From contig CANRHC010000001.1 of NCBI GenBank assembly GCA_947630305.1, positions 520 through 64,519 of the forward strand: 64,000 nt of DNA, read 5' to 3'. The position numbers and the translations under genes are program-made. The notes beneath the pieces are model-generated. The model was not told the origin of the DNA. It did no database searches and saw only the letters and a program-made list of their open reading frames with translations. Below, piece by piece: positions 1 to 31,575 of this stretch. Each line of letters begins with the position of its first letter. The first letter of the stretch is position 1. This stretch comes from an uncultured Bacilli bacterium (GTDB lineage Bacteria > Bacillota_I > Bacilli_A > RF39 > UBA660).

Positions 1-258
1 GAAAATTCTCCAGTTTAAAACTAGCAGGACTTAAATAAAAACTGGGAGGACTTAACTGAAAATTAGGAGGACTCACCTATAAATTAGGTGGTATTGTTTT
101 TGAAAACTAGATTAATTATATACTTAAACTCCTTTTTTACTATTCTAGGTTAGCTATAAAATAGGTGGTATAATTTCTGCCACCTATTGACTAACCTTAG
201 TAGAAAATTAGGAGGTATGTAATTTTTGATTATTTATAAATTTTGTTTAAAAATACCC

Positions 259-287
259 TTGACTAGCTAAAAACTAGGAGGTATAAT
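259..287 (+). promoter_or_regulatory. Sigma-A-type early promoter P1
   Basis: TTGACT(259-264)-17 nt-TATAAT(282-287). Spacer ends in AAAACTAGGAGG. RBS AAAGGAG and ATG at 317 lie downstream. Confidence 0.6.
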
Positions 288-316
288 TAATATAGAAATT
301 GAAAAGGAGATTAGTT

Positions 317-589
317 ATGACCTATTCTGAATTTGAACATAAATTATTTATACAAAATAATAGGTTAAGTAGTGATGTAATAGGTTGTTTTAGATTATGC
401 ACCTATCCCACTCAGAAAGTGTATGAAGTACCATTTGAGGATAAAAGAATGGTGGTAACATTCAGAAATTACTTTAACGATTTATCCGATTCTGTTATAG
501 CGGTCTATGATAAAAACGGTTACGGTTCTGAAATAACCTTTGATTTAGCTTGTGAAATTTTGAATAAATATTATAAAAATAATTTATAA
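317..589 (+). CDS. Early protein, unknown function (90 aa)
   Basis: ATG at 317 preceded by AAAGGAG. The ORF track's TTG start at 299 lies inside the RBS. Downstream of P1. Confidence 0.6.
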   Translation: MTYSEFEHKLFIQNNRLSSDVIGCFRLCTYPTQKVYEVPFEDKRMVVTFRNYFNDLSDSVIAVYDKNGYGSEITFDLACEILNKYYKNNL

Positions 590-595
590 AATACC

Positions 596-624
596 TTGAT
601 TAATGTTAAATTAGGAGGTATAAT
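596..624 (+). promoter_or_regulatory. Sigma-A-type early promoter P2
   Basis: TTGATT-17-TATAAT. Spacer ends AAATTAGGAGG. Confidence 0.55.
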
Positions 625-652
625 TAAATTGCAATAAGAAAAGGAGTTAAAA

Positions 653-952
653 ATGGAAATTACATCTGCTTTGGAATTAATACATAAATTAGAAATATTA
701 TTTAAAAACGGAAAAGCTGATAGAGAACTTATTGATAAAGATGGTTTGATATATATTTTAGAAGATAATAAAAATCAAATAATAGAATGTTATATTGCAC
801 CGAATTTTGATAAAACAATTCATTATGAGGATAGATTTATTATCAGACCGGCAATAAGAAATAACTGGGATTGTTATACTTATATTGATAATAACCAGTT
901 TATTGATTTAGTTAATGAGTTAGTAGAAAAATTAGTTGAAAAAAGAAGTTGA
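653..952 (+). CDS. Early protein, unknown function (99 aa)
   Basis: ATG at 653 with AAGGAG RBS, downstream of P2. Confidence 0.6.
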   Translation: MEITSALELIHKLEILFKNGKADRELIDKDGLIYILEDNKNQIIECYIAPNFDKTIHYEDRFIIRPAIRNNWDCYTYIDNNQFIDLVNELVEKLVEKRS

Positions 953-977
953 CAGCGTGAAAATCAAGAGGTATAAT
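949..977 (+). promoter_or_regulatory. Sigma-A-type early promoter P3
   Basis: TTGACA-17-TATAAT. The downstream UTR is nearly identical to that of P1 (ATAGAAATTGAAAAGGAG). Confidence 0.6.
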
Positions 978-1006
978 ATTTATAGAAATTGAAAAGGAGT
1001 TATAAA

Positions 1007-1510
1007 ATGAATAAAGAAAGATTTTTTGAAATTTACGAAGAGTACGGATTAGAAGGTGAGCCTGAAGGAGCTCAACCAGTTATTGAAAAATTATTTGATG
1101 AATGTGTCCCCAGTGTTGGTAAAGCGGACACAGTTTTTGGAGAAATCGTAAGGGCAATAAATCAAATTGGTTATAGATATTATAACGACGGCGACACGAT
1201 AGGATTTAATTATGGAGTAGAAACGGTCTCCCCCTCTGCTCGGTATTTACAATATCATACTAACGAAACAATAGCCTGTTTTATTAAAGGTATGGCAAAT
1301 TACGATTTTGAGGTTGATTATGAAGCCAAGGAATATGAACGTTTATTAGATACGTTAGTATGTTATATTTCAGATTTTCTTTTTGAAAATACCCAGTTAT
1401 TAGAAGTAGAAAATACCGAAAATTGTAGAAATTTTAAAGCTCAGGGCAAACCTTTTGATTTTGAAGATATTGATGAGGAAGCTGAGGAATACGAAGAAGA
1501 ATATTGGTAA
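1007..1510 (+). CDS. Early acidic protein, unknown function (167 aa, strongly acidic C-terminus)
   Basis: ATG at 1007 after AAAGGAG. C-terminus is FDFEDIDEEAEEYEEEYW. The track's start at 989 is a TTG inside the UTR. Confidence 0.6.
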   Translation: MNKERFFEIYEEYGLEGEPEGAQPVIEKLFDECVPSVGKADTVFGEIVRAINQIGYRYYNDGDTIGFNYGVETVSPSARYLQYHTNETIACFIKGMANYDFEVDYEAKEYERLLDTLVCYISDFLFENTQLLEVENTENCRNFKAQGKPFDFEDIDEEAEEYEEEYW

Positions 1511-1529
1511 ATTTAATTTAAAAAAGAAG

Positions 1530-1558
1530 TTGACAAGTTAAAGATCTTTTGATAAAAT
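1530..1558 (+). promoter_or_regulatory. Sigma-A-type early promoter P4 (cassette family B)
   Basis: AAAAAAGAAGTTGACAAGTTAAAGATCTTTTGATAAAAT: TTGACA-17-TAAAAT, followed by the conserved UTR ATAATTACAATAAAGA(A)AAGGAGTTA. Confidence 0.6.
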
Positions 1559-1590
1559 ATAATTACAATAAAGATAAAGGAGTTACGAAA

Positions 1591-1848
1591 ATGAAATCAT
1601 TAGAAAGACAATTAATTACAAACAATTTAAGTATGATTAAAGATTTAATTAATTCTTTACGTGAAAGTATAGACAATGAAAACAAGAAATATATTTATTC
1701 TGATATATTAAATTTAGAAAGAACCTTTGGCAATATAGAAGTCCAGTTAGATTTATTAAACGCTGACGCAGAATTAAAAGCTGATTATAATTATTTATTA
1801 AATAGATATTACGATTTATCAACGGATGCGGAAGAATTATTATTTTAA
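1591..1848 (+). CDS. Early protein, unknown function (85 aa)
   Basis: ATG at 1591 after AAAGGAG. The track's start at 1549 lies inside promoter P4. Confidence 0.55.
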   Translation: MKSLERQLITNNLSMIKDLINSLRESIDNENKKYIYSDILNLERTFGNIEVQLDLLNADAELKADYNYLLNRYYDLSTDAEELLF

Positions 1849-1866
1849 TTTTTGTTTAAATAATAC

Positions 1867-1895
1867 CTTGACAAGTTAAAGATCTTTTAATATAA
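1867..1895 (+). promoter_or_regulatory. Sigma-A-type early promoter P5 (cassette family B)
   Basis: TTGACAAGTTAAAGATCTTTTAATATAAT: TTGACA-17-TATAAT. Same cassette as P4 and P7. Confidence 0.6.
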
Positions 1896-1920
1896 TTACA
1901 ATAAGAAAAGGAGTTAGAAA

Positions 1921-2193
1921 ATGGATGAATTAAAAGAATATTTAAAAGATGGGAATTTAATATATGAATTAGATGTTATTAATGGATTTGTTGAACCACC
2001 TATAACTGCTTTAACTATTTATGATATTAAAAAACGAAAAGAAATTGATGCACTTATGGGATTTGCAGGTATGGATATTTCTGAAAATGGTATGGAAGAA
2101 TATATCAACATGGAAAATGTTGATATTTTAGGACAATTTAATTCAATAGAGGAATGTATTGGATATTTATATTTAAATCATAAAATTAGTTGA
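1921..2193 (+). CDS. Early protein, unknown function (90 aa)
   Basis: ATG at 1921 after AAAAGGAG. Own promoter P5. Confidence 0.6.
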   Translation: MDELKEYLKDGNLIYELDVINGFVEPPITALTIYDIKKRKEIDALMGFAGMDISENGMEEYINMENVDILGQFNSIEECIGYLYLNHKIS

Positions 2194-2203
2194 AAAAAAG
2201 TAT

Positions 2204-2231
2204 TGACATTTTAAATTAATGAGGTTAAAAT
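2204..2231 (+). promoter_or_regulatory. Sigma-A-type early promoter P6
   Basis: TTGACA-16-TAAAAT, followed by the family-B UTR ATAATTACAATAAAGAAAAGGAGTTAGAAAATG. Confidence 0.5.
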
Positions 2232-2261
2232 ATAATTACAATAAAGAAAAGGAGTTAGAAA

Positions 2262-2714
2262 ATGAACGGAAGACTTTATAGTTCAATAATGACAATTTAT
2301 GACAAGGAAACAGCGGATATTTTAAATGCGGTTGATTATAATATGTATGATATTACAGGTTTAGTTGATGAGGGATATTTAGATGCTTTAGCAAAGGGAA
2401 TTCGATACGGTATAATAGAAGACCGATATAAAGCACAGGATTTAATAAATACTGATACTAATAGTTATATAGCTGATGATTTTCCTGTAATACTAGGAGC
2501 TATTTTTTGGGATATTATAACATTCATGTCCCCTGAACGTTTTATTCAAGATGAAATTTTACCCAGTTTTAAAACACGTGAAAAATTAGATGAATACATG
2601 AAGGAAAACAATTTATCTAATAAAGAATTAATTAATAATTGGGAATGTAAAAATGAATATTTACAAGGTGTTTATCTTGATTATAGAGATGTAGTTTTAG
2701 TTGAAAAATTTTAA
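2262..2714 (+). CDS. Early protein, unknown function (150 aa)
   Basis: ATG at 2262 after AAAAGGAG. Own promoter P6. Confidence 0.6.
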   Translation: MNGRLYSSIMTIYDKETADILNAVDYNMYDITGLVDEGYLDALAKGIRYGIIEDRYKAQDLINTDTNSYIADDFPVILGAIFWDIITFMSPERFIQDEILPSFKTREKLDEYMKENNLSNKELINNWECKNEYLQGVYLDYRDVVLVEKF

Positions 2715-2733
2715 ATTTTGTTTAAAAAAGAAG

Positions 2734-2762
2734 TTGACAAGTTAAAGGTCTTTTGATAAAAT
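2734..2762 (+). promoter_or_regulatory. Sigma-A-type early promoter P7 (cassette family B)
   Basis: AAAAAAGAAGTTGACAAGTTAAAGGTCTTTTGATAAAAT. Near-identical to the P4 cassette. Confidence 0.6.
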
Positions 2763-2792
2763 ATAATTACAATAAAAACAAAGGAGTTAAAA

Positions 2793-3221
2793 ATGTTAAA
2801 ACCTGAATTAGATGAAGCTTTAGAATATTACTACTGTGATGATGTAACCTGTTTACTACATTATATTGACTGGTATTTATTTAGTTTTATTAATGATGAA
2901 GATTTTGTAATTACAACAATTAACCTGTTCAAACAGCATAAAATTTCAAGTGAAGATGTTGATAATATGTTTTATGAAATGGAGCCTGACCTATATTGTA
3001 CTACTGCTGATATTGACAACGGTTCTATTTATCTAATGGGACAAGATGAATTTATAGAAGAATTTATTTTACCTAATTATGAGGACGAGGAAGAAATGGA
3101 AAATAAGTTAGGTAATACAACTTATCAAATTGTATCTAATTATCTTGAACATGATTATAATTTTACTAGAGATATGGTATATCTAGATGATATAGAATCT
3201 GTTTTAATCGTTGAAAATTAG
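2793..3221 (+). CDS. Early acidic protein, unknown function (142 aa)
   Basis: ATG at 2793 after AAAGGAG. Own promoter P7. Confidence 0.6.
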   Translation: MLKPELDEALEYYYCDDVTCLLHYIDWYLFSFINDEDFVITTINLFKQHKISSEDVDNMFYEMEPDLYCTTADIDNGSIYLMGQDEFIEEFILPNYEDEEEMENKLGNTTYQIVSNYLEHDYNFTRDMVYLDDIESVLIVEN

Positions 3222-3234
3222 TTTAAAAAAGGAG

Positions 3235-3263
3235 TTGCCATTTTTTAAACTAAATGGTATAAT
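3235..3263 (+). promoter_or_regulatory. Sigma-A-type early promoter P8
   Basis: TTGCCA-17-TATAAT. Confidence 0.5.
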
Positions 3264-3293
3264 AAAAGTATAAATTAAAGGAGTTTTACGTTA

Positions 3294-3584
3294 ATGAATC
3301 CAAATAAAGACAGATTAAAAAGTTTAATGTTAAAAGTAGATTCTTTTGTTAATAAAGTTACTGATTTACAAAATAAGATTAATAATGATGAAATCGGTCT
3401 AGCTGAGTTATTGAGTATTCTAAGCGACCTCAATTTTAAGTCAGGTGAGATTGAGAATTTATTAAAATATAATAATTATTCTGATTATTTGTTTAATAGT
3501 TATTTTGATAAATGGATTGACTTTATGAGTATACAAGAAAGCGTTTTAAAATCTATCGGCAGAAAAAATGTAAAAATTATTTAA
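3294..3584 (+). CDS. Early protein, unknown function (96 aa)
   Basis: ATG at 3294 after AAAGGAG. Own promoter P8. Confidence 0.55.
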   Translation: MNPNKDRLKSLMLKVDSFVNKVTDLQNKINNDEIGLAELLSILSDLNFKSGEIENLLKYNNYSDYLFNSYFDKWIDFMSIQESVLKSIGRKNVKII

Positions 3585-3592
3585 ATAAAACC

Positions 3593-3621
3593 TTGACAAG
3601 TAATAAAAGACCATGTATAAT
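3593..3621 (+). promoter_or_regulatory. Sigma-A-type early promoter P9
   Basis: TTGACA-17-TATAAT, followed by a TATAAGTA...AAAGGAGTTA UTR related to family B. Confidence 0.6.
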
Positions 3622-3652
3622 ATAAGTATAAAATAAATTAAAGGAGTTACAA

Positions 3653-3934
3653 ATGATTAGTTACGATCAATTTAAACGTGAAATAAATCTAACTATAATA
3701 AAAATGGCAAATCTTAAAAACAGGTTTGAATTAGGAAATTACAAACATATTTATGAATTAGCTAGTAAAGTTAAAGAACAACAAGGTTATATGAATGGAA
3801 TTATTAGATGTGCTAATGGAATCTTTTATGGTGTTGACGGATATTCTGATTTAGAGCGTGCTTATAATATGGCTGAAAATGAGTTTGAATGGGTACACTA
3901 TAATATTATGGATTTTTTAGATAAAAGGAGCTAA
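3653..3934 (+). CDS. Early protein, unknown function (93 aa)
   Basis: ATG at 3653 after AAAGGAG. Own promoter P9. Confidence 0.55.
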   Translation: MISYDQFKREINLTIIKMANLKNRFELGNYKHIYELASKVKEQQGYMNGIIRCANGIFYGVDGYSDLERAYNMAENEFEWVHYNIMDFLDKRS

Positions 3935-3936
3935 AA

Positions 3937-4146
3937 ATGAACAAGGACGAGTACATGGAATATAAACTAAAATATCTTGAAACACTAAAGAAAGAATTAC
4001 AAGGTGTACTGGATAGAATGTATGATGATTATAATTTTACTGAAAAGAAATATAACGATTTATTAGTTAGTAAAGTTACTGAAATGTTTCACAGTTTAAA
4101 ATGTTTAGCATATTTTCCTGAGTTTGAATTACCTGCGGAAAATTAA
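3937..4146 (+). CDS. Early protein, unknown function (69 aa)
   Basis: ATG at 3937 two nt after the upstream stop, with AAAAGGAG RBS. Probably translationally coupled. Confidence 0.5.
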   Translation: MNKDEYMEYKLKYLETLKKELQGVLDRMYDDYNFTEKKYNDLLVSKVTEMFHSLKCLAYFPEFELPAEN

Positions 4147-4175
4147 AATTAATTAAAAAAAGTTTAAAAAAACAC

Positions 4176-4204
4176 TTGACAATATCATTTATAGATTATA
4201 TAAT
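4176..4204 (+). promoter_or_regulatory. Sigma-A-type early promoter P10
   Basis: TTGACA-17-TATAAT, followed by TATAAGTACAATAAAGAAAGGAATTAGAAAATG. Confidence 0.6.
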
Positions 4205-4233
4205 ATAAGTACAATAAAGAAAGGAATTAGAAA

Positions 4234-5430
4234 ATGAAAAAATTTAGTTTTAATGTAAAAGACATGTTAGAAGTATTAAACGGTATTAAATTAAATAAAG
4301 CAAAGAATGGTCACGTATTAACAATTAAAGATAAGAATATAGTTTTAACAGCTCACGGAAAAGACGGATTAAATACAATCTACACTTACTCATCCGATAT
4401 AGAATATAAAGACGAACAAATGGGAAATACAACCAGTTTTGACTTTTGGAAATTCTATGATGCTATAAAAGATTTATCAGATATTGGAGACCGTTGTAAA
4501 GTAGAGGTTGAAAATGAAACCGCCACTTTAACAGTTGATTATTTAGGTATTAAAATTGACGTTTTAGATTATGATTGTAATGTAGTAAATTCTGACATAG
4601 AGGATAAACTTTATGAAAACAATCTCTTTTATTTACCGATTGAAAATAAAAAACAATTAATCAACAATCTAGAAACATTAAAGAAGTTTACCGCAGTTAA
4701 TGAAAATCAAATACCTATTATAACAGGCGTTAAAGTTGAAGTGAAAGACAATACCTGCCGATTTATAGCAATAGATGGCTTTAGATTTATTACTATTGAT
4801 TATAAGATTGAACGACCAAATAGCAGTACTATCTCCCAAGAGGATTTTGAGTTTGTATTAAATAAAAGTCAACTTGAATCTTTAGTTAAAATTTTAAGAA
4901 ATAATAAAACAGCTAGTCAAATTGAGTTTACTTTAAACAAAGATAATTTAGTTGATATATTAGTATTTAAAGAATTAAATTTAGGTTGTAATTATATAGG
5001 TATTCAAAGTAACGCTTTAGAAGGTAACTTTTTTGACTATACAACTGTTATACCAAAAAAGAAAACTCACTCACTTAAACTTAATAAGAATAATCTAGTT
5101 AAAACTACTAAAGTTATCAATAAAGCGAAATCTGATGATTTAAGTTTAATAGTATTTAATAAAACGGATAATAGCTTATTACTAACTGATAAGAAAGATA
5201 AAATTAAATCAACCTTTTCTGATATTGATAACTTAAGTAACTATACGGACGTAAAATTTGGTATTAACTCAAGTTATCTGTTAAACAGTTTAGATAACAT
5301 AAATTCAAGTGAGGTAACACTAGACTTTAAAGCGGAAGATAATACACTTATTGAACCTTTAGTTATTAACGATAATAATAAATATAGCAATAACAATTAC
5401 TATATTTTACCAGTTAGAATGACTGCTTAA
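4234..5430 (+). CDS. dnaN: DNA polymerase sliding clamp (DnaN/beta-clamp-like), 398 aa
   Basis: Three-domain length. Central ...IPIITGVKVEVKDNTCRFIAIDGFRFITID... resembles the beta-clamp domain II start. C-terminus ...YYILPVRMTA resembles the bacterial beta-clamp C-terminus ...VVMPMRL. Own promoter P10. Confidence 0.55.
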   Translation: MKKFSFNVKDMLEVLNGIKLNKAKNGHVLTIKDKNIVLTAHGKDGLNTIYTYSSDIEYKDEQMGNTTSFDFWKFYDAIKDLSDIGDRCKVEVENETATLTVDYLGIKIDVLDYDCNVVNSDIEDKLYENNLFYLPIENKKQLINNLETLKKFTAVNENQIPIITGVKVEVKDNTCRFIAIDGFRFITIDYKIERPNSSTISQEDFEFVLNKSQLESLVKILRNNKTASQIEFTLNKDNLVDILVFKELNLGCNYIGIQSNALEGNFFDYTTVIPKKKTHSLKLNKNNLVKTTKVINKAKSDDLSLIVFNKTDNSLLLTDKKDKIKSTFSDIDNLSNYTDVKFGINSSYLLNSLDNINSSEVTLDFKAEDNTLIEPLVINDNNKYSNNNYYILPVRMTA

Positions 5431-5452
5431 ACATTTTAAATTCAAGATTAAA

Positions 5453-5478
5453 TAGGAGAATAAACTCCTATTTTTTCT
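5453..5478 (+). terminator. Rho-independent terminator after the clamp gene
   Basis: TAGGAGAATAAACTCCTA hairpin followed by TTTTTTCTG. Confidence 0.6.
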
Positions 5479-5498
5479 GTTTAATTAGGAGGAAAATC

Positions 5499-6323
5499 AT
5501 GTTAGATAAAATGAAAAAACTAGTTGAGAACAGAGGACTTTCAACTTATGAAATAGTACATAATACCGGCTGTGTTTCACGTACTAATATTTTAGAACCG
5601 GTTATAAACGGAGATAAAGAAATTACCAGTACTAACTTTAATAACTTATCAGCTTTTGCGCGTGGACTTGGTGTTACTATTGAGGATATTTTGGAGGATT
5701 ATGACTATGATGGAACAACAGCTCAAATACTTAATATTGAACGTACGGTTAAAAGATTTAAAAAGCATCAACAAAACGGTATAGTTTTAACAGAAAATGA
5801 GGACGGTGGCTATGTTATCGGTGCGAGATATGAGGTAAACAAATATGAAAATTTTCCTATTCTGAAAAAAGATTTTGAGATAATAGAAAAGAATAAATTC
5901 CATTCAGAACAATTAACAGAACCGATATATCTATTAAACAGAAGATGGTTAAATACCAGTAGTAAAAACACTTATTTAACTAAGAATAATACCCTTACTA
6001 ACCTCGCCCCAAAACTAAATAAATATTCTATGGCGTTCTTTATTTACTCACCTATTTATGATAATAACGATTTAATCGGTGGGGATTTTAAACTGGCTAT
6101 ATCTGTATTGAATAAAGAAGGCTTTTTTAGCTTTAGTGAGGTATATGGCTGTGAATGGCTTAAAACAGAAGAAACACGCCACATAGTTTATTATAAAGCA
6201 TACAATGAACATTTATACGTTACTCCTGAAAGAATAGAAGAATGGGAAAAAGAAGAAATTTCAGAACTTGAATATTGGAAAGCAATTTATACTCAATTCT
6301 TTAAATTTGGTATAAGTAAATAA
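5499..6323 (+). CDS. HTH (XRE-like) DNA-binding protein with a C-terminal domain of unknown function, 274 aa
   Basis: N-terminal LVENRGLSTYEIVHNTGCVSRTNI...LSAFARGLGVTIEDIL is a helix-turn-helix pattern. AGGAGG RBS. Confidence 0.5.
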   Translation: MLDKMKKLVENRGLSTYEIVHNTGCVSRTNILEPVINGDKEITSTNFNNLSAFARGLGVTIEDILEDYDYDGTTAQILNIERTVKRFKKHQQNGIVLTENEDGGYVIGARYEVNKYENFPILKKDFEIIEKNKFHSEQLTEPIYLLNRRWLNTSSKNTYLTKNNTLTNLAPKLNKYSMAFFIYSPIYDNNDLIGGDFKLAISVLNKEGFFSFSEVYGCEWLKTEETRHIVYYKAYNEHLYVTPERIEEWEKEEISELEYWKAIYTQFFKFGISK

Positions 6324-6328
6324 TCAAG

Positions 6329-6366
6329 AATTAACCTATATTAATTTATAGGTTAATTTTTTTTTG
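6329..6366 (+). terminator. Strong rho-independent terminator closing the early block
   Basis: AATTAACCTATA-TTAATTT-ATAGGTTAATT hairpin followed by a run of nine T. Confidence 0.75.
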
Positions 6367-6374
6367 CCCAATGC

Positions 6375-6590
6375 GTGAAAATGTAAACGTTTTATTTTAC
6401 ACGTATTTAATACTTTTTCTGTCTTTGTATGTTATTATACTTATTTAATCTATCCCCCATTATTTTGTAAATTAAAGCGTTTTATACCATAATTGCTAAT
6501 TATACACCTATTTGATATTATTAATGTTTAGTTTTACTTATTTTAGGTTATAAATGTAAACGTTTTATTTTAACCGTATTTAAAAGATTT
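6375..6590. repeat. Direct repeat AATGTAAACGTTTTATTTTA(c/a)ACCGTATTTAA, two copies
   Basis: Copies at about 6380-6412 and 6552-6584. The core AAACGTTT is palindromic. Confidence 0.7.
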
Positions 6591-6837
6591 TACCCTTACC
6601 TATATTAGAATACCTTTCAAAATTAATACCCTTTATTTTGCCGATTTGAGACTACACGATTTTAAGCTTTCCATTTGCAAATATCAGCTTTCTATGATAT
6701 ACTTATTATATCAAAATAGAATTACTATGAATAATAGGATAACTCTATTCAAGACCTTTGAAATTTTAAATCGAGAATTTTTAATTTTCTGATGGGAGAA
6801 TAAAAAATGTCAGATATTAATGCGTCTTTTTACACTG

Positions 6838-7062
6838 GTCAAAATTCAATTACGATTCGGTGGTCAAAATTCGTTTAACATCTGATGGTCAAAATTCAAT
6901 CGTCATGGTCTGTATTAAAAAATGGTAAAATTTTAAACACCACCACTCCGACCTTTGACTTTTGACAGCTGATAAAATTCTGCCAGTCCGTCCAATTGAG
7001 AGTTAATAAAATTCTGCCACTCCGTCTATTTGACAGCTAGGAATTTTCTGCCACTCTGCCCA
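6838..7062. repeat. Iteron arrays: 3x GGTCAAAATTC then 3x AATTCTGCCA(C/G)TC(C/T)G(T/C)C
   Basis: GGTCAAAATTC at about 6838, 6860 and 6886. AAAATTCTGCCAGTCCGTCC, AAAATTCTGCCACTCCGTCT and TTTTCTGCCACTCTGCCC at about 6974, 7007 and 7035. TTGAC(A/T) elements lie between them. Confidence 0.75.
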
Positions 7063-7196
7063 TCTGAAAGAAAAGAAAAAAAAAGAATAAAAAGAATATA
7101 CTACCAATGCGTTTAGTGTCATCAAAAGGTGATTGGTGACAAAATACCGCTATTTGGCACGAAAGAATCCACACTCACAAAATACCACCATGCGTG

Positions 7197-7231
7197 AAAA
7201 AAAAAGTCTGTACACATTTCTGCATACAGAC
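7197..7231 (-). terminator. Rho-independent terminator (minus strand) ending the leftward middle operon
   Basis: Minus strand reads GTCTGTATGCAGAAATGTGTACAGAC followed by a run of nine T. Confidence 0.55.
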
Positions 7232-7286
7232 CATATCTCAACTTCAAAATGTTTATTAATACCCTTTAAAGTTTATCCTTTCTTAT

Positions 7287-7625
7287 CTAATACCATTCTA
7301 ACGCTATCTTGTCTAATTCCGTCATATCCAGCAACTCAAGTCCGTACTGATGTGCTTCATACATTGTACTCTCACTCATTGGAAATTTTTTCAGTATTTC
7401 TTTAAACTGCATGCCCACAATGTATCTTGAAACCAGTACTGCCCTCTCCCTTGCAGGAAGTTTGTTGACCGCACGTTCAAACGCCTCTAACTCATTTAAA
7501 AGTTCCGTTGCCCTTTCATGCAAATAATCAACTAATTCTTGAGTTTCATCCATTACTTCTATCCACCGGTCATCAGGTCTTTTATGAATGTTCCCTGATG
7601 GCATCCCTGTTAGAATACTGGTCAA
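7287..7625 (-). CDS. ArpU-like / sigma-70 region-4-like transcriptional regulator (112 aa), candidate late-gene activator
   Basis: C-terminal ERAVLVSRYIVGMQFKEILKKFPMSESTMYEAHQYGLELL matches the sigma-70 region 4 HTH pattern. Size is typical of the ArpU/RinA-type phage late activators of Firmicutes. Confidence 0.5.
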   Translation of the reverse strand: MTSILTGMPSGNIHKRPDDRWIEVMDETQELVDYLHERATELLNELEAFERAVNKLPARERAVLVSRYIVGMQFKEILKKFPMSESTMYEAHQYGLELLDMTELDKIALEWY

Positions 7626-7837
7626 TTTGATTTTTGTTGATTGAAGTCTTTCAAGTTCTGTTACGTGAGAGTCAAAATCAATTTTAATATACCTGTATTC
7701 ATTTAACCGCTGTTTACGTCTTTCAAGTTCTTCTTTTGTAATTCCGTTATGTTCTATTCTTAACCTGCTTTCTATGAACAGAACATCTGATTGTATTAAA
7801 ATTTTGTCGGATTTAATACTGCATGACCTTAGATAAA

Positions 7838-7935
7838 AACTAGGAGGTGTTCGTTTTCCTCAGCTAAAAACTAGGTGGTATCCATTTTCCTCAGCTGTAA
7901 ACCAGGTGGTATATTTTTAACTCAGCTGAAAACTA
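7838..7935 (+). promoter_or_regulatory. Cluster of four AAAACTAGGAGGT-like motifs with a CCTCAGCT spacer repeat
   Basis: AAAACTAGGAGGTGTT, AAAACTAGGTGGTATCC, AAACCAGGTGGTATAT and AAAACTAGGAGGTCTAAT lie in the 300-bp intergenic region upstream of the regulator gene. Confidence 0.5.
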
Positions 7936-7941
7936 GGAGGT

Positions 7942-11861: not shown

Positions 11862-12905
11862 TTAACAGGTTTCCATAATCAAATTACCGAGGTATTCTGC
11901 AATATTCACTGTTACTGCATTACCAGCCTGTTTATATAACTGCGTATTAGAATTAACTTTTTCAGCTTTCTCAAACTGTTCATCAGTAAATCCTTGTAGT
12001 CTAAAACATTCACGTGGAGTTAAACGTCTTATGTTGTATCTTTCACCTTCATAAACAAATACTCCAAACTGACTATTTTGTTCAGGGACTGTATAAAGTC
12101 CAGTTTTAGCACCTAATCCACCACTTAAACTTTTAAGCGCACAAGATAATTCATTGCTGTCATATACTCTATTTGCTTGAGCACCTGGAATTATCTGTTT
12201 AAGTCTTTTAGATTCGGGAATGGCTACATTTTGTGAACCTTTATAATCTCTAGACATTAAAGCTCTTGATATACTATCTTCTGTCAGTACAATATCCTGA
12301 CTATACTTGCCCTGAATTAATGTTTGTATTTCAGAGCCTTTTGAACAATTTTGTCTATCTGTTCCTGTGAGAGGTAAAACTTTTCGTCTACCTCTTTCTC
12401 TAAGATGTCCGATAATGAATACACGTTCTCTGTTTTGTGGTACACCAAAGTCTTTGGAATTAAGCAATACCCATTCTGTGTCGTACCCTGTTTCTGATAT
12501 TTCAGAGAGAACCTCGGTAAATGCTTCCCCTCCCTCAATTGACAACAGGTTCTTAACATTTTCAACGAGTAACCATTCGGGTCTATCTTTGGAGTCTTTG
12601 TTTTTGAGTAAGCTAATGATGTTGTAAAAGATTCCACTTCTTTCTCCAGTAAGTCCTTTGTGTTTTCCTGCAATTGAGATGTCTTGACATGGGAATCCAA
12701 AACACCATAGATCTGCTTTTGGTATTTCATTTGATTCAACTGTTCGGATGTCTGTTGCAGTCCATTCCCCTGTTGTGTCATACATTTCTTCATAGCTTTT
12801 TCTGACATATTCATCTATCTCCACATATCCAATACAGTTAAATCCAGCTTTTTCAAGCCCCGATCTAAATCCACCGATACCTGAACATATGTCAATAAAA
12901 TTCAA
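11862..12905 (-). CDS. DNA (cytosine-5)-methyltransferase
   Basis: Motif I DICSGIGGFRSG (FxGxGG). Motif IV GFPCQDIS (PCQ catalytic cysteine). Motif VI ENVKNL. Confidence 0.85.
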   Translation of the reverse strand: MNFIDICSGIGGFRSGLEKAGFNCIGYVEIDEYVRKSYEEMYDTTGEWTATDIRTVESNEIPKADLWCFGFPCQDISIAGKHKGLTGERSGIFYNIISLLKNKDSKDRPEWLLVENVKNLLSIEGGEAFTEVLSEISETGYDTEWVLLNSKDFGVPQNRERVFIIGHLRERGRRKVLPLTGTDRQNCSKGSEIQTLIQGKYSQDIVLTEDSISRALMSRDYKGSQNVAIPESKRLKQIIPGAQANRVYDSNELSCALKSLSGGLGAKTGLYTVPEQNSQFGVFVYEGERYNIRRLTPRECFRLQGFTDEQFEKAEKVNSNTQLYKQAGNAVTVNIAEYLGNLIMETC

Positions 12906-21796: not shown

Positions 21797-22599
21797 TCAA
21801 GGTCTATTAATTCATATTCAACATTTCCTAACTTAAAGAGTTCTGTTACCTTTGCAAAATCGCTTTCTTTAATCTTTAAGTAAAGACAAGGTTCAGGGGG
21901 AGTTTCTGTTGGTCTAACCTTACTGCTGTCTAATGCTTTTTTAACCCCGTCTTTTTCTTTTTTAAGATTGTCAAAATAGGTTATGGTATCTGATACAGAA
22001 CCATTGTTTAAATACTCATTTACAACGGTATCTCGATTTAGGTTTGCTTTATCTGCAAAAACGACACAAGCTGAAATATCATCTCGTCTTTGTTCAAAAA
22101 ACTCAACCATCTCACCCTCAATTTTAGTAAGGGATTTACGCTTGTTCAGATATTCCTTTTTCATAAAGTCATCGAATGGATAAAGCTGTTCAACCTCTTT
22201 ACCACCGTATATCTTCAAGCGTTTATCGAATAACTCTTTAATCTGAGCTTTTTTATCAGCTCTTGTCTTATCTTCTAATTCTTTAACCTGTCGTCTTATA
22301 TGATATTCATAAGCACCTAAACGCCTATCAATTTCTTTAACCTGCGCATCAAGGGTTTCAAGAGGTTTCATATATTCTCTTTTAAAAGCCATTTTCTCTT
22401 CATGGATGTTTTTGAAGACTTTTCTGCATTGTGCGACAAGTTTTTTATTTTCCTTTACATTTTCATCCGTAACATCAACCGACAGGAGATAAGTACCAAG
22501 TTTATCAAGTTCTGCTAGAAGCTCATCATAATCAACTATACCGACTTTACGGTCATGTAGTTGAATTTCATGAGTTTCCGGTATAATTAATTCATACAT
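21793..22599 (-). CDS. Hypothetical coiled-coil protein (268 aa)
   Basis: Long ORF, Lys/Glu-rich in its centre. Confidence 0.45.
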   Translation of the reverse strand: MYELIIPETHEIQLHDRKVGIVDYDELLAELDKLGTYLLSVDVTDENVKENKKLVAQCRKVFKNIHEEKMAFKREYMKPLETLDAQVKEIDRRLGAYEYHIRRQVKELEDKTRADKKAQIKELFDKRLKIYGGKEVEQLYPFDDFMKKEYLNKRKSLTKIEGEMVEFFEQRRDDISACVVFADKANLNRDTVVNEYLNNGSVSDTITYFDNLKKEKDGVKKALDSSKVRPTETPPEPCLYLKIKESDFAKVTELFKLGNVEYELIDLE

Positions 22600-23405
22600 G
22601 GTATATTTGTAATGATGTATTCAGGAGCTGTCATCTTTTTGCCTTTTATAGATGAATGTAGCATCCTGAGTACATCAAGTTCTGTTATGTAATAATCTTT
22701 AAACAATTCATGAACCTCTTGATTTTGTTCGTGAGAAAGAATAACTATAACGTTTTTATTACTTAAGGTATCGCAGCAGTTTTTAAGTTTTTCCATATCC
22801 TCGAGTGTAAATTTATCCTTGTAATACCGACTAAAATCAGTATTCAGATAAGGTGGGTCAAGATAGCAAATATCACCGTCTTTAGCCTGTTCTAAGGTTT
22901 TCTCAAAAGACTGACAGTAAATTTTAGTATTCTTTAAGTGTTTGACAGCTTGACGTATATCATCTTTGTAATGGAGCATATCCCGTTCAGGGTGTCTAAA
23001 ATATGAAGTATTGACTTGTCCTTTTGAATTAAATCTACAAGACCCGTACCCTGTTACACAAAGATAAATATATCTCGCTGCTTTAAACGCTTTTGAATAA
23101 TTTTTGTAATACGGAGTTCTATCCATCTTTCTAATTTTGTAGTAATAGTCCTCAGTATTCGGCAGTCTCTCAAAATGCCATATAACCTCTTCGGCGTTGT
23201 ATTTTATCTGCTCCCACATATTAATTACCTCAGGATTGGTATCAGCAATAACAGAATTAGGGTAATTCAAGTCTAGAAATACCGCCCCTGCTCCGATAAA
23301 AGGTTCATAATAAGTTGTATTTTCTTTTAAGTTGCCTTTAATTATTGGTGTGATTAAATTTGTGATGGAACGTTTACCTCCATGATAGGGGATAAACGGT
23401 CTCAA
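22587..23405 (-). CDS. dam: DNA adenine (N6) methyltransferase, Dam/D12 class
   Basis: EPFIGAGAVFL (SAM-binding motif) and YLDPPYLNTDFSRYY (DPPY catalytic motif). Confidence 0.85.
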   Translation of the reverse strand: MRPFIPYHGGKRSITNLITPIIKGNLKENTTYYEPFIGAGAVFLDLNYPNSVIADTNPEVINMWEQIKYNAEEVIWHFERLPNTEDYYYKIRKMDRTPYYKNYSKAFKAARYIYLCVTGYGSCRFNSKGQVNTSYFRHPERDMLHYKDDIRQAVKHLKNTKIYCQSFEKTLEQAKDGDICYLDPPYLNTDFSRYYKDKFTLEDMEKLKNCCDTLSNKNVIVILSHEQNQEVHELFKDYYITELDVLRMLHSSIKGKKMTAPEYIITNIPCMN

Positions 23406-24197: not shown

Positions 24198-24494
24198 TTA
24201 GGGTCTGTGTTTTACAACAGCTTTTGCGTATCTCCCCATATCTACATCCTCGATTAAATCCTCCCATGGAATTTTTTTAGGGTCTTCAAAATCATAAGTA
24301 TTGAAAAATACCCTCATTGGATTACAGGGAAAATGCAAAAAATGTAACATGATTTCGATTTCATTACTGTTGAACACGCCCTTTCTAAGCTTTCTTCTAA
24401 AATCTTCTACAGACGTATCAAGTATCATAGCCACTTCCCTAGTTGAAAAATTATTGTACTTGATTATGTCGTATAACCGCTGACTATCTACCAT
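24198..24494 (-). CDS. Cro-like HTH regulator (98 aa), divergent from the repressor gene
   Basis: FSTREVAMILDTSVEDFRRKL helix-turn-helix. Transcribed divergently from the repressor across a 320-bp AT-rich region. Confidence 0.5.
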   Translation of the reverse strand: MVDSQRLYDIIKYNNFSTREVAMILDTSVEDFRRKLRKGVFNSNEIEIMLHFLHFPCNPMRVFFNTYDFEDPKKIPWEDLIEDVDMGRYAKAVVKHRP

Positions 24495-24814
24495 GACTTT
24501 ATAATATCACAGAAAAATTTAAATACAAGGAAATTTTTAAGAAATTTACAAATTATTTATTTGTATTTAATTATAATTATTCTGTTAATAATTATAGTAT
24601 GATAACTGGTGATTATACTTATTTCAAGTCCTTTTTCAATTTTTCTCGAATTTTTGAGTAAATTCAATTATGTAGTAATAATATGCTATAACTGCTCATT
24701 ATGTTATAAAGATTATCAATAAATGGTAATTATACGAGTATAAAAATCTTTAAATTTACGACCATTTCATTTATAATATATTTTAAGAAATACTCTTCAT
24801 ATGGGTGGTTTGAT

Positions 24815-25441
24815 ATGTACGGGAAGAGATTAAAGCAATTAAGAAAACAGAGAGGGTTAAAGCAGGTTGAGTTGTCTAGAATAAGTGGGGTATCTGTTAC
24901 CAATCTGACAAGATATGAGAATACAGAATACAACATTGTAAAATCCAATACAGTAGAAAAACTGGCAAAAGCCCTCGGTACAACCAGTGATTACCTTTTG
25001 GGGATAACTGATTTTGAAAATTTAGAGGTCGTTGAGTTAAACAAAACAGATACTCTGCCTGTGCCAGTTTATGGTACGATTCCTGCCGGACGTCCAATAG
25101 AGGCTCTTGAGGTTGATGGTGGTTATATCAATATAGACAAAAGTAATTTCCGTGGCGGCAAACAGTTTATCGGTCTGAAAGTCAAGGGTAATAGTATGTA
25201 CCCTTTTTATATAGATGGAGATACGGTTATTGTTGAAATTACCGCAGATGCTAAAAGTGGCGAGGATGTTGTAGCCTATATCGGTTATGACCATGAAGCA
25301 ACATTGAAACGTTTTCATATAAAAGACGACCACGTTGAATTAGAGCCATTAAACAGAGAATACCCTGTGCGCTCTTATTATAAAACAGATATTCCTGTTC
25401 GTATTTTAGGTGTTGTAAGGGAATTGAGGAGAAACATATGA
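24815..25441 (+). CDS. CI/LexA-like repressor (HTH plus S24 peptidase domain), 208 aa
   Basis: N-terminal LKQVELSRISGVSVTNLTRYE helix-turn-helix. C-terminal GNSMYP...LKRF carries the Ser/Lys dyad. Confidence 0.8.
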   Translation: MYGKRLKQLRKQRGLKQVELSRISGVSVTNLTRYENTEYNIVKSNTVEKLAKALGTTSDYLLGITDFENLEVVELNKTDTLPVPVYGTIPAGRPIEALEVDGGYINIDKSNFRGGKQFIGLKVKGNSMYPFYIDGDTVIVEITADAKSGEDVVAYIGYDHEATLKRFHIKDDHVELEPLNREYPVRSYYKTDIPVRILGVVRELRRNI

Positions 25442-26547
25442 AAATCAGTAAGGTAAAGGGTAAGGACTCCTATCGGGGGTATGTAAGAAAGCCTGACGGG
25501 GGTTATAAACAAATATACGGTAAAACTAAAAAAGAGGTTCGGGAAAAAGCCGAATCTCTATCTTTTGATATAAAGACTGGAAAATTTGTAGAAAATAATA
25601 AAATAAGTTTTGAGGACTGGTGTAATGAATGGGTTGATAATTATTTGATTAATGTAAGTTTACTCACCAAGAGAACCTACAAGAAACATATGAAAAACCA
25701 TATAATCAAAGAATTTAAAAATGTTAAATTACAGAATCTCACCCATAATCAAGTCCAACGTTTCATTCAGAAGTTAAGTCAAAATTATGCTCCTAAAACT
25801 GTCCGCAATATTTACCTTGTTCTCCACCGCTCATTATCTGATGCAGTAAAAAACGGTTTTATTTCCTTTAATCCCTCTGATGATATTATCCTGCCAAAAC
25901 TGGTTAAAGAAGAAATTAAAGTACTCGAGTTAGATGAAATAGATACCTTTATTAATCTAGCCTATGAATTAGTACCGGAGTATGCCGATTGTTTAGAATT
26001 TCTCCTGTTTACCGGTCTCCGTATTTCTGAATTTATCGGTCTAACCATTGATAACTATAATTCTGAAACCAAAACCCTTACAGTAAATAAACAGTATGAC
26101 AGAGTGGATAGAGTTTATATTCCGCCTAAATATGGTGCGACAAGGGAGTTTAGGTTATCAGAAAGTGCAGTTAAGATTGTAGAAAACAGAATAAGTAAAA
26201 TAAATAAAAGACGTGAAAAATTTCCAAACTACAATGATGAGAATATTTTGTTTTTAAACCCTGAATCAGAAAGAATTACACAACAGACTTTAAGAAAGAA
26301 ATTAAAGATAGTAACTGCTAAATTAGGTAAAGAAGATTTTAGATTGCATGACTTAAGACATACCTTTGCTACTCTCACAATAGCTAGTGGTACAGAAATA
26401 AAAACATTACAGAAGATATTAGGTCATACGGATGCCAGTTTTACAATGAATGTTTATGCACATTCTACTGAAATAATGAATAAAATTGCAGCTGAGAATT
26501 TAGAAAATTTTAGGAAAAATAGTTACAGAATAGTTATAGGTGATTAA
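25438..26547 (+). CDS. int: Tyrosine integrase/recombinase (369 aa)
   Basis: Catalytic residues: R in GLRISE, HDLRHTFAT, LGHTDASFTMNVYAH (His and Tyr). Start overlaps the repressor stop. Confidence 0.85.
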   Translation: MKISKVKGKDSYRGYVRKPDGGYKQIYGKTKKEVREKAESLSFDIKTGKFVENNKISFEDWCNEWVDNYLINVSLLTKRTYKKHMKNHIIKEFKNVKLQNLTHNQVQRFIQKLSQNYAPKTVRNIYLVLHRSLSDAVKNGFISFNPSDDIILPKLVKEEIKVLELDEIDTFINLAYELVPEYADCLEFLLFTGLRISEFIGLTIDNYNSETKTLTVNKQYDRVDRVYIPPKYGATREFRLSESAVKIVENRISKINKRREKFPNYNDENILFLNPESERITQQTLRKKLKIVTAKLGKEDFRLHDLRHTFATLTIASGTEIKTLQKILGHTDASFTMNVYAHSTEIMNKIAAENLENFRKNSYRIVIGD

Positions 26548-29450: not shown

Positions 29451-30344
29451 TCAAATAGAGTTACTGTATTCCTGCTCTTTACTGGCGATGTAATCTTCAA
29501 TTTCGCTTTGTGTTTTGTTCTGCTGTATCATTTCGTCTATGTGGTTGAATATTTCGTCTATTTGAGATTCTGTCATGTCGGTGGTGTTGACGGCGTAGAT
29601 ACTAGATTTTGTTTCAACTTCTTGATTAACTGGCGGTTCATCACCGATTGAGGGTTGGTCGAGGTTGTTTGGGTCATGTATATATCCGTTTCTCGAAGTA
29701 TTTATGCTAAAAGAAATAGAATATTCTTTATTATCTGTTACTGATATATATTTATTAAGTTCATGAGCCTTACTCCAAAATTGAGCATGAATATAAAGTC
29801 TATATCGACCGAACGTTGATAAGGAATAAGTTTGATTATATTCATAAGGATATTGTGTATTAATAGTGGTTTTAATTTTTTCAGAACCATCGGGATTAAA
29901 TAATTGATAATAATTATCAATCATTGCACCACCATCAGTAGAATAAGAAACTTTAAGCGTTGCACTACAAGTACACGTCAAGCTCCCCTCAAACGTATCA
30001 AGAACAGTAACACTCGTTATACTACTAGCAGTATTACTACTCTTAATATTCCACACCCCTGCCTCGGGTACTTCAAGCTTACATTGCTGATTTTCAATGT
30101 TACCAGTAACGCTTAATTCACCTTTAGTGGCTGTTATCTTACCACCGACATAACCGGAGTTAGAATCAGTTTTAACTAGAATGTAATATCCACCACCAGA
30201 CTTAATCGAATCAATATACGTACTCACTTCGCTAAATTTGGCAACAGAACCCCCCCCGATCTCGCAACCTTTGGAAATTAGAGAGGTTGTAATATCCTGC
30301 TGACTTTGTTTGAGTTTTTGCGTTACTTCGTCAAATCTGCCCAT
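29451..30344 (-). CDS. Tail fibre / receptor-binding protein, paralogue B (297 aa)
   Basis: Paralogous to 30331-31230 at both termini. Divergent centre. C-terminal ...TESQIDEIF...EIEDYIASKEQEY. Confidence 0.5.
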   Translation of the reverse strand: MGRFDEVTQKLKQSQQDITTSLISKGCEIGGGSVAKFSEVSTYIDSIKSGGGYYILVKTDSNSGYVGGKITATKGELSVTGNIENQQCKLEVPEAGVWNIKSSNTASSITSVTVLDTFEGSLTCTCSATLKVSYSTDGGAMIDNYYQLFNPDGSEKIKTTINTQYPYEYNQTYSLSTFGRYRLYIHAQFWSKAHELNKYISVTDNKEYSISFSINTSRNGYIHDPNNLDQPSIGDEPPVNQEVETKSSIYAVNTTDMTESQIDEIFNHIDEMIQQNKTQSEIEDYIASKEQEYSNSI

Positions 30345-31230: not shown

Positions 31231-31520
31231 TAGACCACCTCCTCAAGTACGGTAAGCAGTCCGTCTAAATCGCTCTCGATTGAGCCGACACGGGTCTGTA
31301 AGTCCTCGATATTTGTTTTATTCGTCGTAATCTGCGTAACGTCCGTAGGGCTTATTAAGGTTTTATCACCGTCTTTTAGGACGTAACCGGACAGGTCGAC
31401 GCTGGTTATTGCTTGTTGAACATCTTCACTAGTCGCAAAATTAGCTTTAATAATACTTGCGACCTCTTTCATTCCATTTAAAGTTATTAAAGGACTATCA
31501 AATATATACGGTTTTGACAT
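31230..31520 (-). CDS. Tail-associated hypothetical protein (96 aa)
   Basis: ORF coupled within the tail-fibre cluster. Confidence 0.4.
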   Translation of the reverse strand: MSKPYIFDSPLITLNGMKEVASIIKANFATSEDVQQAITSVDLSGYVLKDGDKTLISPTDVTQITTNKTNIEDLQTRVGSIESDLDGLLTVLEEVV

Positions 31521-31575
31521 TATTTACTCCTTTAAACAAAAAAGGAGATGATTTTACTCATCCCCTTATAAAATT

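Follow-up and report, generated by a model that had tools for sequence, protein, structure and literature searches.

The window analyzed here comprises 64,000 nucleotides (nt) of contig CANRHC010000001.1 (assembly GCA_947630305.1, positions 520–64,519) from an uncultured Bacilli bacterium (RF39/UBA660), and carries the genome of a phage. We focused on its left 6.4 kb, a block of genes on the + strand, nearly all else in the 64 kb being on the − strand. In this block small genes are preceded by repeated, near-consensus σA-type promoters, forming an array of promoter cassettes that leads up to a gene for a DNA polymerase sliding clamp. The GC content is 25–27% in the array (window 1–6000) versus 32–42% in the rest (replication and structural regions). 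The cassettes (P0–P10), genes (g0–g12, protein sizes in amino acids, aa) and terminator-like sites are given below in window positions, except for P0 and g0, which were obtained from other assemblies of the same phage (locus L006); the leader families A to C are described in the text.

L006 62–90: P0, TTGACA-16-TATAAT, 567 nt upstream of the window
L006 144–647 (stop codon at window position 18): g0, 167 aa, with its own promoter and terminator-like hairpin
17–216, + strand: gene-less copies of AAAAYTAGGWGG(T/A), as 3.4 tandem 21-nt units (17–88) and copies at 157 and 204
73–100, + strand: terminator-like hairpin (73–91) and T-run, between g0 and P1
234–316, + strand: P1, A-tract, TTGACT-17-TATAAT (259–287), leader B (ATAGAAATTGAAAAGGAG)
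317–589, + strand: g1, 90 aa, ORFan
575–652, + strand: P2, TTGATT-17-TATAAT (596–624), the weakest promoter (10/12), spacer with AAATTAGGAGG, leader related to A
653–952, + strand: g2, 99 aa, ORFan, last codons and stop overlapping P3
924–1006, + strand: P3, TTGACA-17-TATAAT (949–977), upstream element AAAAAAGAAG, leader B
1007–1510, + strand: g3, 167 aa
1505–1590, + strand: P4, TTGACA-17-TAAAAT with TGn (1530–1558), spacer AGTTAAAGATCTTTTGA, leader A
1591–1848, + strand: g4, 85 aa
1843–1920, + strand: P5, TTGACA-17-TATAAT (1868–1896), P4-type spacer, ATACC upstream element, leader A minus 5 nt
1921–2193, + strand: g5, 90 aa, ORFan
2178–2261, + strand: P6, TTGACA-17-TAAAAT (2203–2231), leader A (exact reference copy)
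2262–2714, + strand: g6, 150 aa, acidic, distant paralogue of g7
2706–2792, + strand: P7, TTGACA-17-TAAAAT with TGn (2734–2762), P4-type spacer with one G change, leader A variant
2793–3221, + strand: g7, 142 aa
3210–3293, + strand: P8, TTGCCA-17-TATAAT with TGn (3235–3263), leader C
3294–3584, + strand: g8, 96 aa
3568–3652, + strand: P9, TTGACA-17-TATAAT (3593–3621), own spacer type AGTAATAAAAGACCATG, leader C
3653–3934, + strand: g9, 93 aa, translationally coupled to g10
3937–4146, + strand: g10, 69 aa, without its own promoter, coupled to g9
4151–4233, + strand: P10, TTGACA-17-TATAAT (4176–4204), leader A variant, weaker ribosome-binding site AAGGAA
4234–5430, + strand: g11, 398-aa DNA polymerase sliding clamp (beta-clamp type), predicted to be driven by P10
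5450–5481, + strand: intrinsic-terminator-like hairpin (5450–5473) and T-run after g11, minimum free energy −15 kcal/mol, z = −3.8
5499–6323, + strand: g12, 274 aa, last gene of the rightward block
6326–6369, + strand: AT-rich 15-bp hairpin (6326–6361) and T9 after g12, ending the rightward block, z = −5.5

Ten sites on the + strand of the window match TTGACA-17-TATAAT, with −35 hexamers starting at positions 259, 596, 949, 1530, 1868, 2203, 2734, 3235, 3593 and 4176 and a spacer of 17 nt in every case. Four of them match the consensus at 12/12 positions, five at 11/12 and one (596, TTGATT) at 10/12, so that the ten rightward, near-perfect promoters described in an earlier note on this DNA are borne out. 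Nine sites with a score of at least 11/12 fall within positions 1–4300, versus 0.31 ± 0.57 expected and a maximum of 3 in 2000 first-order Markov simulations, which rules out chance promoter-like sites in AT-rich DNA. The other 60 kb contain only 2 such sites on the + strand and 3 on the − strand. All nine are on the coding strand and lie 24–32 nt before a start codon with an upstream AAAGGAG, and they are probably active promoters read by the host polymerase. The earlier note had assigned one promoter to each of ten genes within positions 259–4236. This applies to most of the genes; however, g10 has no promoter of its own and the tenth promoter drives the clamp gene g11. The proposed range was also too short, as P0 and g0 extend the module upstream and the block ends at the terminator-like sites after g11 and g12.

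What is repeated along the block is the regulatory cassette and not the gene, as the earlier note had proposed. There are eleven cassettes of approximately 85 nt, each consisting of an A-tract, −35, spacer, −10, leader and ribosome-binding site and each followed by one gene, except that g9 and g10 are on a shared cassette. Directly upstream of every −35 is an A-tract element, GTTTAAAAAA(GAAG/TACC), which can also be written as (T/A)TTnGTTTAAAAAA followed by GAAG or ATACC and which is similar to a bacterial UP element; over the 25 nt upstream, the copies share 65% identity versus 31% in the background. The −10 is preceded by TGn in five cassettes and is separated from the ATG by 24–32 nt in the ten window cassettes and by 54 nt in P0, and all cassettes have a ribosome-binding site AAAGGAG (GGAA in P10) 7–9 nt before the ATG. 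The upstream element extends over the final codons of the gene before it, the distance from stop codon to −35 being −4 to 29 nt.

Comparison of the cassettes revealed a small number of types for each of their segments. The upstream element is of the ATACC type in P0, P1, P2, P5, and P9, and of the AAGAAG type in P3, P4, P7, and approximately in P8. The spacer AGTTAAAGATCTTTT is common to P4, P5, and P7, and the spacer AAAAYTAGGAGG to P1, P2, and approximately P3. Leader A (ATAATTACAATAAAGAAAAGGAGTTAGAAAATG) is clear after the promoters at 1530, 1868, 2203, and 2734 (P4–P7) and looser after 4176 and 596 (P10 and P2). The earlier note had placed this leader after six promoters, of which the first four are clear and that at 4176 is loose, but that at 3593 belongs to leader C (AAGTATAAA..TTAAAGGAGTT), which is common to 3235 and 3593 (P8 and P9). 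Its second leader family, after P1 and P3, was recovered as leader B. An identical −35 context had also been reported for three copies; the 33-nt context is near-identical in two of them (1530 and 2734, one base apart) and partial in the third (1868), which has only TTGACAAGTTAAAGATCTTTT in common with the others and carries another upstream element. The likeness of P4 and P7 extends over approximately 60 nt with one mismatch, spacer included, and in P5 the same spacer type is joined to another upstream element. The P4 spacer AGTTAAAGATCTTTTGA includes the palindrome AAAGATCTTT, and the palindromic spacer TTAAAGRTCTTTT, a possible operator, is not enriched outside its three cassettes (20 matches versus 15 expected). 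These comparisons show cassettes that are mosaics of a few segment types, related by descent and recombination. Common descent is indicated because the spacer, which promoter function does not constrain, is also alike in P4 and P7.

Scanning one genome per species for the P4-type 21-mer identified a 4.5-kb contig with three matches (L063, from an uncultured Bacilli metagenome-assembled genome, GC content 24%), the reverse complement of which is a second version of the module. It contains eleven cassettes of the window's families, each before one gene. Seven genes (g4, g6, g7, g8, g9, g10, and g11) are common to the window and L063 and occur in the same order, while g1, g2, g3, and g5 are found only in the window and four unrelated genes and one g7 paralogue (38% identity) only in L063; at the place of g1, L063 has an unrelated 103-aa gene. 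The identity of the shared small proteins ranges from 99% for g8 and g10, through 84% for g9, 73% for g4 and 71% for g7, to 32% for g6.

At the DNA level, the right half of the array is collinear with L063 and 88.6% identical from the 5′ edge of P7 into the clamp gene (window 2714–4305), P8 being nearly identical in both. In the left half, DNA similarity is confined to the cassettes, apart from a block at 1497–1923 that includes g4. This block, 79% identical, runs from cassette P4 through g4 and ends at the start codon of g5, and window 257–314 matches positions 1–57 of the L063 reverse complement at 96.6% and ends at the start codon of g1; all three homology blocks end at cassette edges. L063 also combines the segment types differently: its g4 orthologue is behind a P9-type promoter and spacer, its g9 orthologue has the P9 spacer joined to leader A, and the leader before its g7 orthologue is half P3-type and half P7-type. 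Spacers are identical or nearly so in P4, P5, P7, and four L063 cassettes. The comparison that the earlier note had proposed with related phages thus gave a positive answer, in that gene content varies while the cassettes are kept, and the aligned sequences show that it is precisely at the cassette edges that the gene content of these relatives differs. No IMG/VR match was obtained with the cassette 21-mer or with a leader 22-mer; in the JGI metagenomes the 21-mer had no match and the 22-mer unrelated chance matches only.

The scan for terminator-like sites found none between positions 100 and 5450. There is no stem-loop before the promoters, since folding of the 70 nt upstream gives z values of −0.8 to +1.3, and there is no room for a hairpin because of the short gap between stop codon and −35. 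Transcripts from all promoters would be co-terminal, because terminator-like sites are found only after g11 and g12. The hairpin at the end of the block (6326–6369) faces the terminator of a leftward operon at 7232–7205 (− strand).

The small proteins g0–g10 (69–167 aa) have no significant match in Pfam, PHROG, NCBIfam or PADLOC, and none of them matched an anti-defence, defence or characterized family in these library searches. Nine of the 11 have an isoelectric point (pI) of 4.05–5.3, and the net charge reaches −26 in g3 and −30 in g7, which agrees with the earlier statement that many of them are acidic. The statement that they are mutually dissimilar stands in that no similarity is significant, but g6 and g7 show a marginal relation (E = 0.016) that is strengthened by their L063 homologues and makes them distant paralogues. 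When all small proteins were compared by tblastn with 50,697 phage records and 72,556 plasmids, only g3 had matches, in two uncultured huge phages. The g3 protein belongs to a large uncharacterized family, with 1084 cluster representatives at E ≤ 1e-3 and 411 at E ≤ 1e-10 in an exhaustive HMMER search, the motif GKADT..GE..RA..I.YRYYNDGD and the invariant residues G45, E46, R49, Y56, N60, G62, and G70. Its members are standalone or fused, in proteins of up to 1049 aa and in one case with a MutS domain I, and one homologue is encoded by a 595-kb uncultured phage. The family has no Pfam or NCBIfam model, and a search of the PDB with the family profile gave one marginal match (9r2o_A, E = 0.0025). 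Structure prediction of the small proteins, which the earlier note had suggested, produced a confident, helical AlphaFold model for g3 (predicted local distance difference test, pLDDT, 87), with no structural match in the PDB and matches to uncharacterized proteins only in BFVD, and a low-confidence model for g7 (pLDDT 51) that was too poor for a structure search.

The two larger proteins of the block are of a different kind. The clamp g11 is identified by phrog_947 (E = 9e-22) and by Pfam DNA_pol3_beta domains; searches with it found no related IMG/VR locus and, among 5.8 billion proteins, its own cluster and two matches at 22–24% identity. The N-terminus of g12 is weakly similar to a Cro/C1-type helix-turn-helix (HTH_26, E = 0.0033, 18.1 bits, below the 22-bit cut-off); there was no other library match and its PDB sequence search was empty.

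The array is not an assembly artefact, because the window sequence was independently assembled in several ENA and Logan samples at 99.6–100% identity over up to 11.3 kb. Every contig found to carry g1 or the clamp gene belongs to the same phage. Judged by its gene content, this is a temperate phage of approximately 65 kb with a low-GC Gram-positive (Bacillota) host, and not a large lytic Firmicutes phage of the kind that the arrangement had called to mind in the earlier note. The phage is temperate because it has a lysogeny switch (24198–26547) consisting of a CI-type repressor with an S24 peptidase domain (24815–25441, + strand), a divergent Cro-like gene (24198–24494, − strand) and an integrase gene (25438–26547, + strand). 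The intergenic region between cI and cro is 320 nt long and contains repeats of ATAAMTGGTRATTATAC at 24602 and 24719, which we took as candidate CI operators; these candidate operator repeats are absent from the cassettes. Leftward from approximately 24 kb, the replication genes extend down to a late regulator with σ region 4 (7287–7553); the genes for packaging, head, tail, and lysis are likewise leftward, between 58 kb and 27 kb. The tail genes form a contractile-tail set, sheath domains being seen in the syntenic tail genes of relatives. On the circular map, the promoter array has the late regulator on one side and the terminase genes on the other; it is oriented against every lytic gene, and approximately 3.1 kb of non-coding DNA rich in repeats separates it from the leftward small genes. 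The identity of the capsid protein to that of any phage in the collection does not exceed 34%, the nearest being temperate phages of Clostridium and Lactobacillus, and megablast of window positions 1–6000 and 30000–45000 against the phage collection gave no match.

The closest full-length relative is a 69-kb sister phage from the same samples (L011), with a large terminase subunit (TerL) 80% identical to that of the window phage. Its genome has an equally oriented set of five consensus promoters at the corresponding map position, beyond a stretch of approximately 3.2 kb without called genes similar to that of the window; the flank common to these promoters, TTCAAAAAAACTATTGACAAA, is a different one, and the array genes of L011 are unrelated to g0–g12. 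A promoter array at this position thus appears to be a lineage trait, given these five promoters, and each genome has its own cassette flavor, with upstream-element identities of 0.65 and 0.82 within the genomes versus 0.54 between them. No promoter array was found within 10 kb upstream of TerL in more distant relatives (TerL 54–60% identical; L018–L020). At 1779–2117 (− strand), where its array begins, L011 has four perfect TTGACA-17-TATAAT promoters in tandem, approximately 100 nt apart and with the common flank but with no open reading frames (ORFs) between them, which may be empty cassettes, tandem boosters or small-RNA promoters.

The gene leaders of L011 carry CTTAACTAAAAACTCAGGAGG, and real genes there have CTTAACTAAAAACTCAGGAGGTT..ATG as their leader and ribosome-binding site. 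The same L011 leader motif is found inside the spacers of P1–P3, and the motif AAAAYTAGGWGG(T/A) has 28 matches versus 11.7 expected. The gene-less copies at 17–216 suggest remnants of lost units, because the same motif is a gene leader in L011. An alternative interpretation of the motif AAAACTAGGAGG as a T7-type promoter for a phage polymerase was dropped, as there is no RNA polymerase gene and the motif is a gene leader in L011. This motif also occurs in 3.7 tandem copies of a 31-nt unit (CCTCAGCTAAAAACTAGGAGGTATACATTTT) at 7827–7941 (+ strand), as it does in the repeats at 17–282. The 31-nt repeats are located between two − strand genes, upstream of the late-regulator gene, with weaker copies at 8481, 8688, 9042, and 9224, and could be a regulator binding site or remnants of leader cassettes.

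The sister phage is one of three related phages that co-occur in ENA samples ERZ27249386/389/395/684 (loci L001–L022): the window phage, a strain whose packaging and head genes show approximately 82% DNA identity (its TerL being 92% identical at the amino acid level), and the 69-kb sister phage, the coverage of which is about 10-fold higher than that of the other two. In both low-coverage strains, the contigs are broken at nearly one and the same place upstream of the terminase.

Promoter arrays also occur in uncultured phages (IMG/VR loci L024–L057). In all, 40 IMG/VR loci were scanned, 36 found with a 21-mer of the L011 cassette and 4 with a second pattern. In 19 strand-loci, 7–27 promoters with a score of at least 11/12 are on one strand within 2.6–14 kb, most of them with an A-tract and TGn and with locus-specific leader families, and many are followed by ORFs of 33–240 aa. 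Dense one-strand arrays of 12–27 near-consensus promoters are present in L055, L037, L035, L045, L026, L056, and L057. These arrays differ from that of the window in that their genes are unrelated and many of their contigs are 90–197 kb long, and L055 (GTTTAGACTT-N4-AAGTCTAAA) and L037 (TTAGACG-N4-CGTCTAA) have a conserved hairpin before most promoters that is not found in the window. Nevertheless, window 4199–4225, the −10 and leader of P10, is identical at 26 of 27 positions to an L055 cassette, with leader ATAGATACAATAAAGAAAGGAG in both, although the genes are unrelated. Promoter arrays are common among uncultured phages, and the array of the window can therefore be regarded as a well-supported variant of something known, which will not surprise a phage specialist.

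The earlier note had interpreted the units as host-takeover or anti-defence morons. A classical moron (Hendrix and colleagues) is a single promoter–gene–terminator unit between two core genes that is expressed from the prophage. The units of the window are similar in that they bring their own promoter, have a base composition unlike that of the remaining genome, and include genes (g1, g2, g3, and g5) that are present here and absent in L063. However, ten of them are arranged head to tail, there are no terminators for g1–g10, and only g0 has both a promoter and a terminator, so that, because they lack terminators, the units are not morons in the strict sense.

A closer parallel are the promoter-early stem-loops (PeSLs) of T4-type phages (Arbiol et al. 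2010, PMC2839356; Comeau et al. 2014, PMC4122927). As in the window, these are composite repeated cassettes with an AT-rich upstream tract, a near-consensus σ70-type promoter and, at the 3′ end, a Shine-Dalgarno sequence with the start codon; they are found beside ORFans in a plastic region, close relatives differ at them by indels and replacements, and degraded or gene-less copies are present. In contrast to PeSLs, the window cassettes have no stem-loop or terminator upstream of the promoter, so that the units are not insulated from each other, and they belong to a temperate phage of approximately 65 kb with a Gram-positive host and not to lytic T4-type phages of 170–250 kb. Recombination between PeSLs, moreover, gives rise to excised mini-circles. 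The array appears to work like PeSLs but, with the stem-loop absent, is not assigned to them. The full PeSL build seems to occur outside T4-type phages in L055 and L037. The array also resembles the module for host takeover in Bacillus phage SPO1 (genes 37–60; Stewart et al. 1998, as described in PMC6873191), in which small genes, mostly of unknown function, lie together in one uninterrupted cluster, with promoters and ribosome-binding sites of the highly expressed type that are used by the host σA polymerase. However, SPO1 is a lytic phage of the 130-kb class of Herelleviridae, its module is located in the terminal redundancy and organized in operons, and none of the small proteins of the window is similar to SPO1 gp37–gp60 by tblastn against the 50,697 phage records.

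Altogether, we consider it likely that the region is a σA-dependent, gene-exchanging expression array of a temperate phage, the proteins of which are probably directed at the host. In such an array, each gene would have an expression of its own, every promoter would give transcripts that continue to the two terminators behind the clamp gene and g12, and downstream genes would gain additive transcription. A gene could be inserted, lost or replaced without silencing its neighbors, since each gene brings or finds a complete expression signal, and the cassettes would double as homology patches, that is, as putative recombination substrates where genes are swapped. Once host RNA polymerase meets the DNA, small and mostly acidic ORFan proteins would be made at a high level alongside the clamp. 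By analogy with the systems described above, the array may be expressed early, and the small proteins probably act on host functions or host defences; the host-takeover or anti-defence idea draws on the same kind of analogy, the proteins being small, acidic, putatively strongly expressed, and ORFan.

Several points weigh against this reading. Promoter activity, start sites, timing, and read-through are all deduced from the DNA sequence. There is only one close second version of the module, which is 4.5 kb long and incomplete, and from which the direction and frequency of exchange cannot be stated. Even g3, the sole small protein with many homologues, is in an uncharacterized family. Part of the cassette similarity is functional constraint and not ancestry, since L055 has nearly the same −10 and leader. 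Finally, since the phage is temperate and the cassettes lack the candidate CI-operator repeats, expression could be constitutive from the prophage rather than early-lytic. Taken to its end, this last point leads to a reading that we consider unlikely, in which the block would be a set of accessory genes, or morons in a broad sense, that is expressed constitutively in the lysogen, outside repressor control, and serves the host or excludes other phages. The orientation of the block, which apart from cI and int is the sole large one against the lytic genes, its low GC content and the g0 unit with its own promoter and terminator-like hairpin would fit such a set. However, the clamp gene behind one of the cassettes has a function in lytic replication, a lysogen would be heavily burdened if eleven near-consensus promoters fired constitutively, no protein matches a defence family, g12 may repress the block in view of its weak helix-turn-helix signal, and early expression is described for arrays of the same build, namely the SPO1 module and the PeSL regions of T4-type phages (PMC6873191, PMC2839356).

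The functional constraint just mentioned could also be extended to all cassettes, which would then be alike merely by selection for maximal expression, the gene differences arising from ordinary illegitimate recombination. The conserved elements (UP element, −35, −10, TGn, and ribosome-binding site) are indeed all functional, an unrelated IMG/VR phage has 26 of 27 identical positions in the −10 and leader, and promoter arrays with their own leader families are common. Selection alone would hardly account for the unconstrained spacers that are identical or nearly so in P4, P5, P7, and four L063 cassettes, for the mosaic composition of the cassettes, for three homology breakpoints on cassette edges or for the cassette flavor of each genome, and we regard this explanation as very improbable. 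Hardly credible is the possibility that the array is mainly a promoter sink for host RNA polymerase with the ORFs in a minor role: the presence, within 5 kb, of eleven near-consensus promoters that have UP elements and the ORF-free tandem promoters of L011 would suit a sink, but every promoter of the window is followed by a consensus ribosome-binding site and an ORF at a fixed distance, and selection acts on the proteins because several ORFs stay 71–99% identical in L063 amid changed surroundings. A bolder form of the gene-exchanging array, which seems quite doubtful to us, is that the stem-loop-less cassettes are portable docking sequences that move single ORFans inside a phage lineage and also between unrelated phages of low-GC Gram-positive bacteria by homologous recombination without a dedicated recombinase, the array serving both the lytic and the lysogenic state. 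Hints in this direction are the 26/27-nt identity with L055, the cassette flavor of the sister phage, and the gene-less remnants in both genomes.

Other features of the genome were recorded along with the array. The non-coding zone at 6324–7286, where the directions of transcription converge, contains several repeats: a 25-nt unit in 2.6 copies (6836–6900), a 34-nt unit in 2.8 copies (6962–7056; TTGACAGCT..TTCTGCCACTCCGTC), a 40-nt pair (6379 and 6552), and, at 6489–6505, a copy of the cI–cro region repeat with 2 mismatches. Many repeats also occur at 61300–64000, which together with approximately 0.4 kb beyond the window to P0 make up approximately 3 kb without a credible ORF; they include six + strand copies of TGCATATAATA at 63773–63954, a perfect 20-nt tandem at 62870–62909 and a 31-nt tandem at 62995–63053, and two copies of ATCAGATAGTTGCATA are at 61222–61271. 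The sister phage has approximately 3.2 kb without called genes at the matching place, and the stretch at 61300–64000 is possibly an origin, a packaging site or a regulatory hub. Among the leftward small genes between the terminase and this non-coding region are four tRNA genes (Glu-TTC, Asn-GTT, Ser-TGA, and Leu-TAA; 58996–59501, − strand), which were the only matches in an Rfam scan. In addition, four DNA methyltransferase genes are found across 11862–12905, 22587–23405, and 50440–52184 (one C-5 cytosine, one phrog_56, and two D12-class N6-adenine enzymes), which suggests heavy investment in restriction escape. The two D12-class genes are adjacent within the head-gene block, and the related strain L014 has an N6_N4 methylase in the place of one of them.

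For practical purposes, cassette sequences can be used as search keys, since one 21-mer led to the only close relative of the module and the L011 21-mer to dozens of arrays. The approximately 20 small, exchanged, and putatively strongly expressed proteins of the window and L063 are good candidates for host interference or defence evasion, and g3, the predicted fold of which is confident yet unmatched, gives entry to a family that numbers more than 1000 clusters. With regard to phage biology, the use of a regulatory cassette as a recombination handle, which is known from lytic T4-type phages of Gram-negative bacteria, would also occur in a temperate phage of a Gram-positive host, and the principle would operate without the stem-loop that was once thought to be part of the element.

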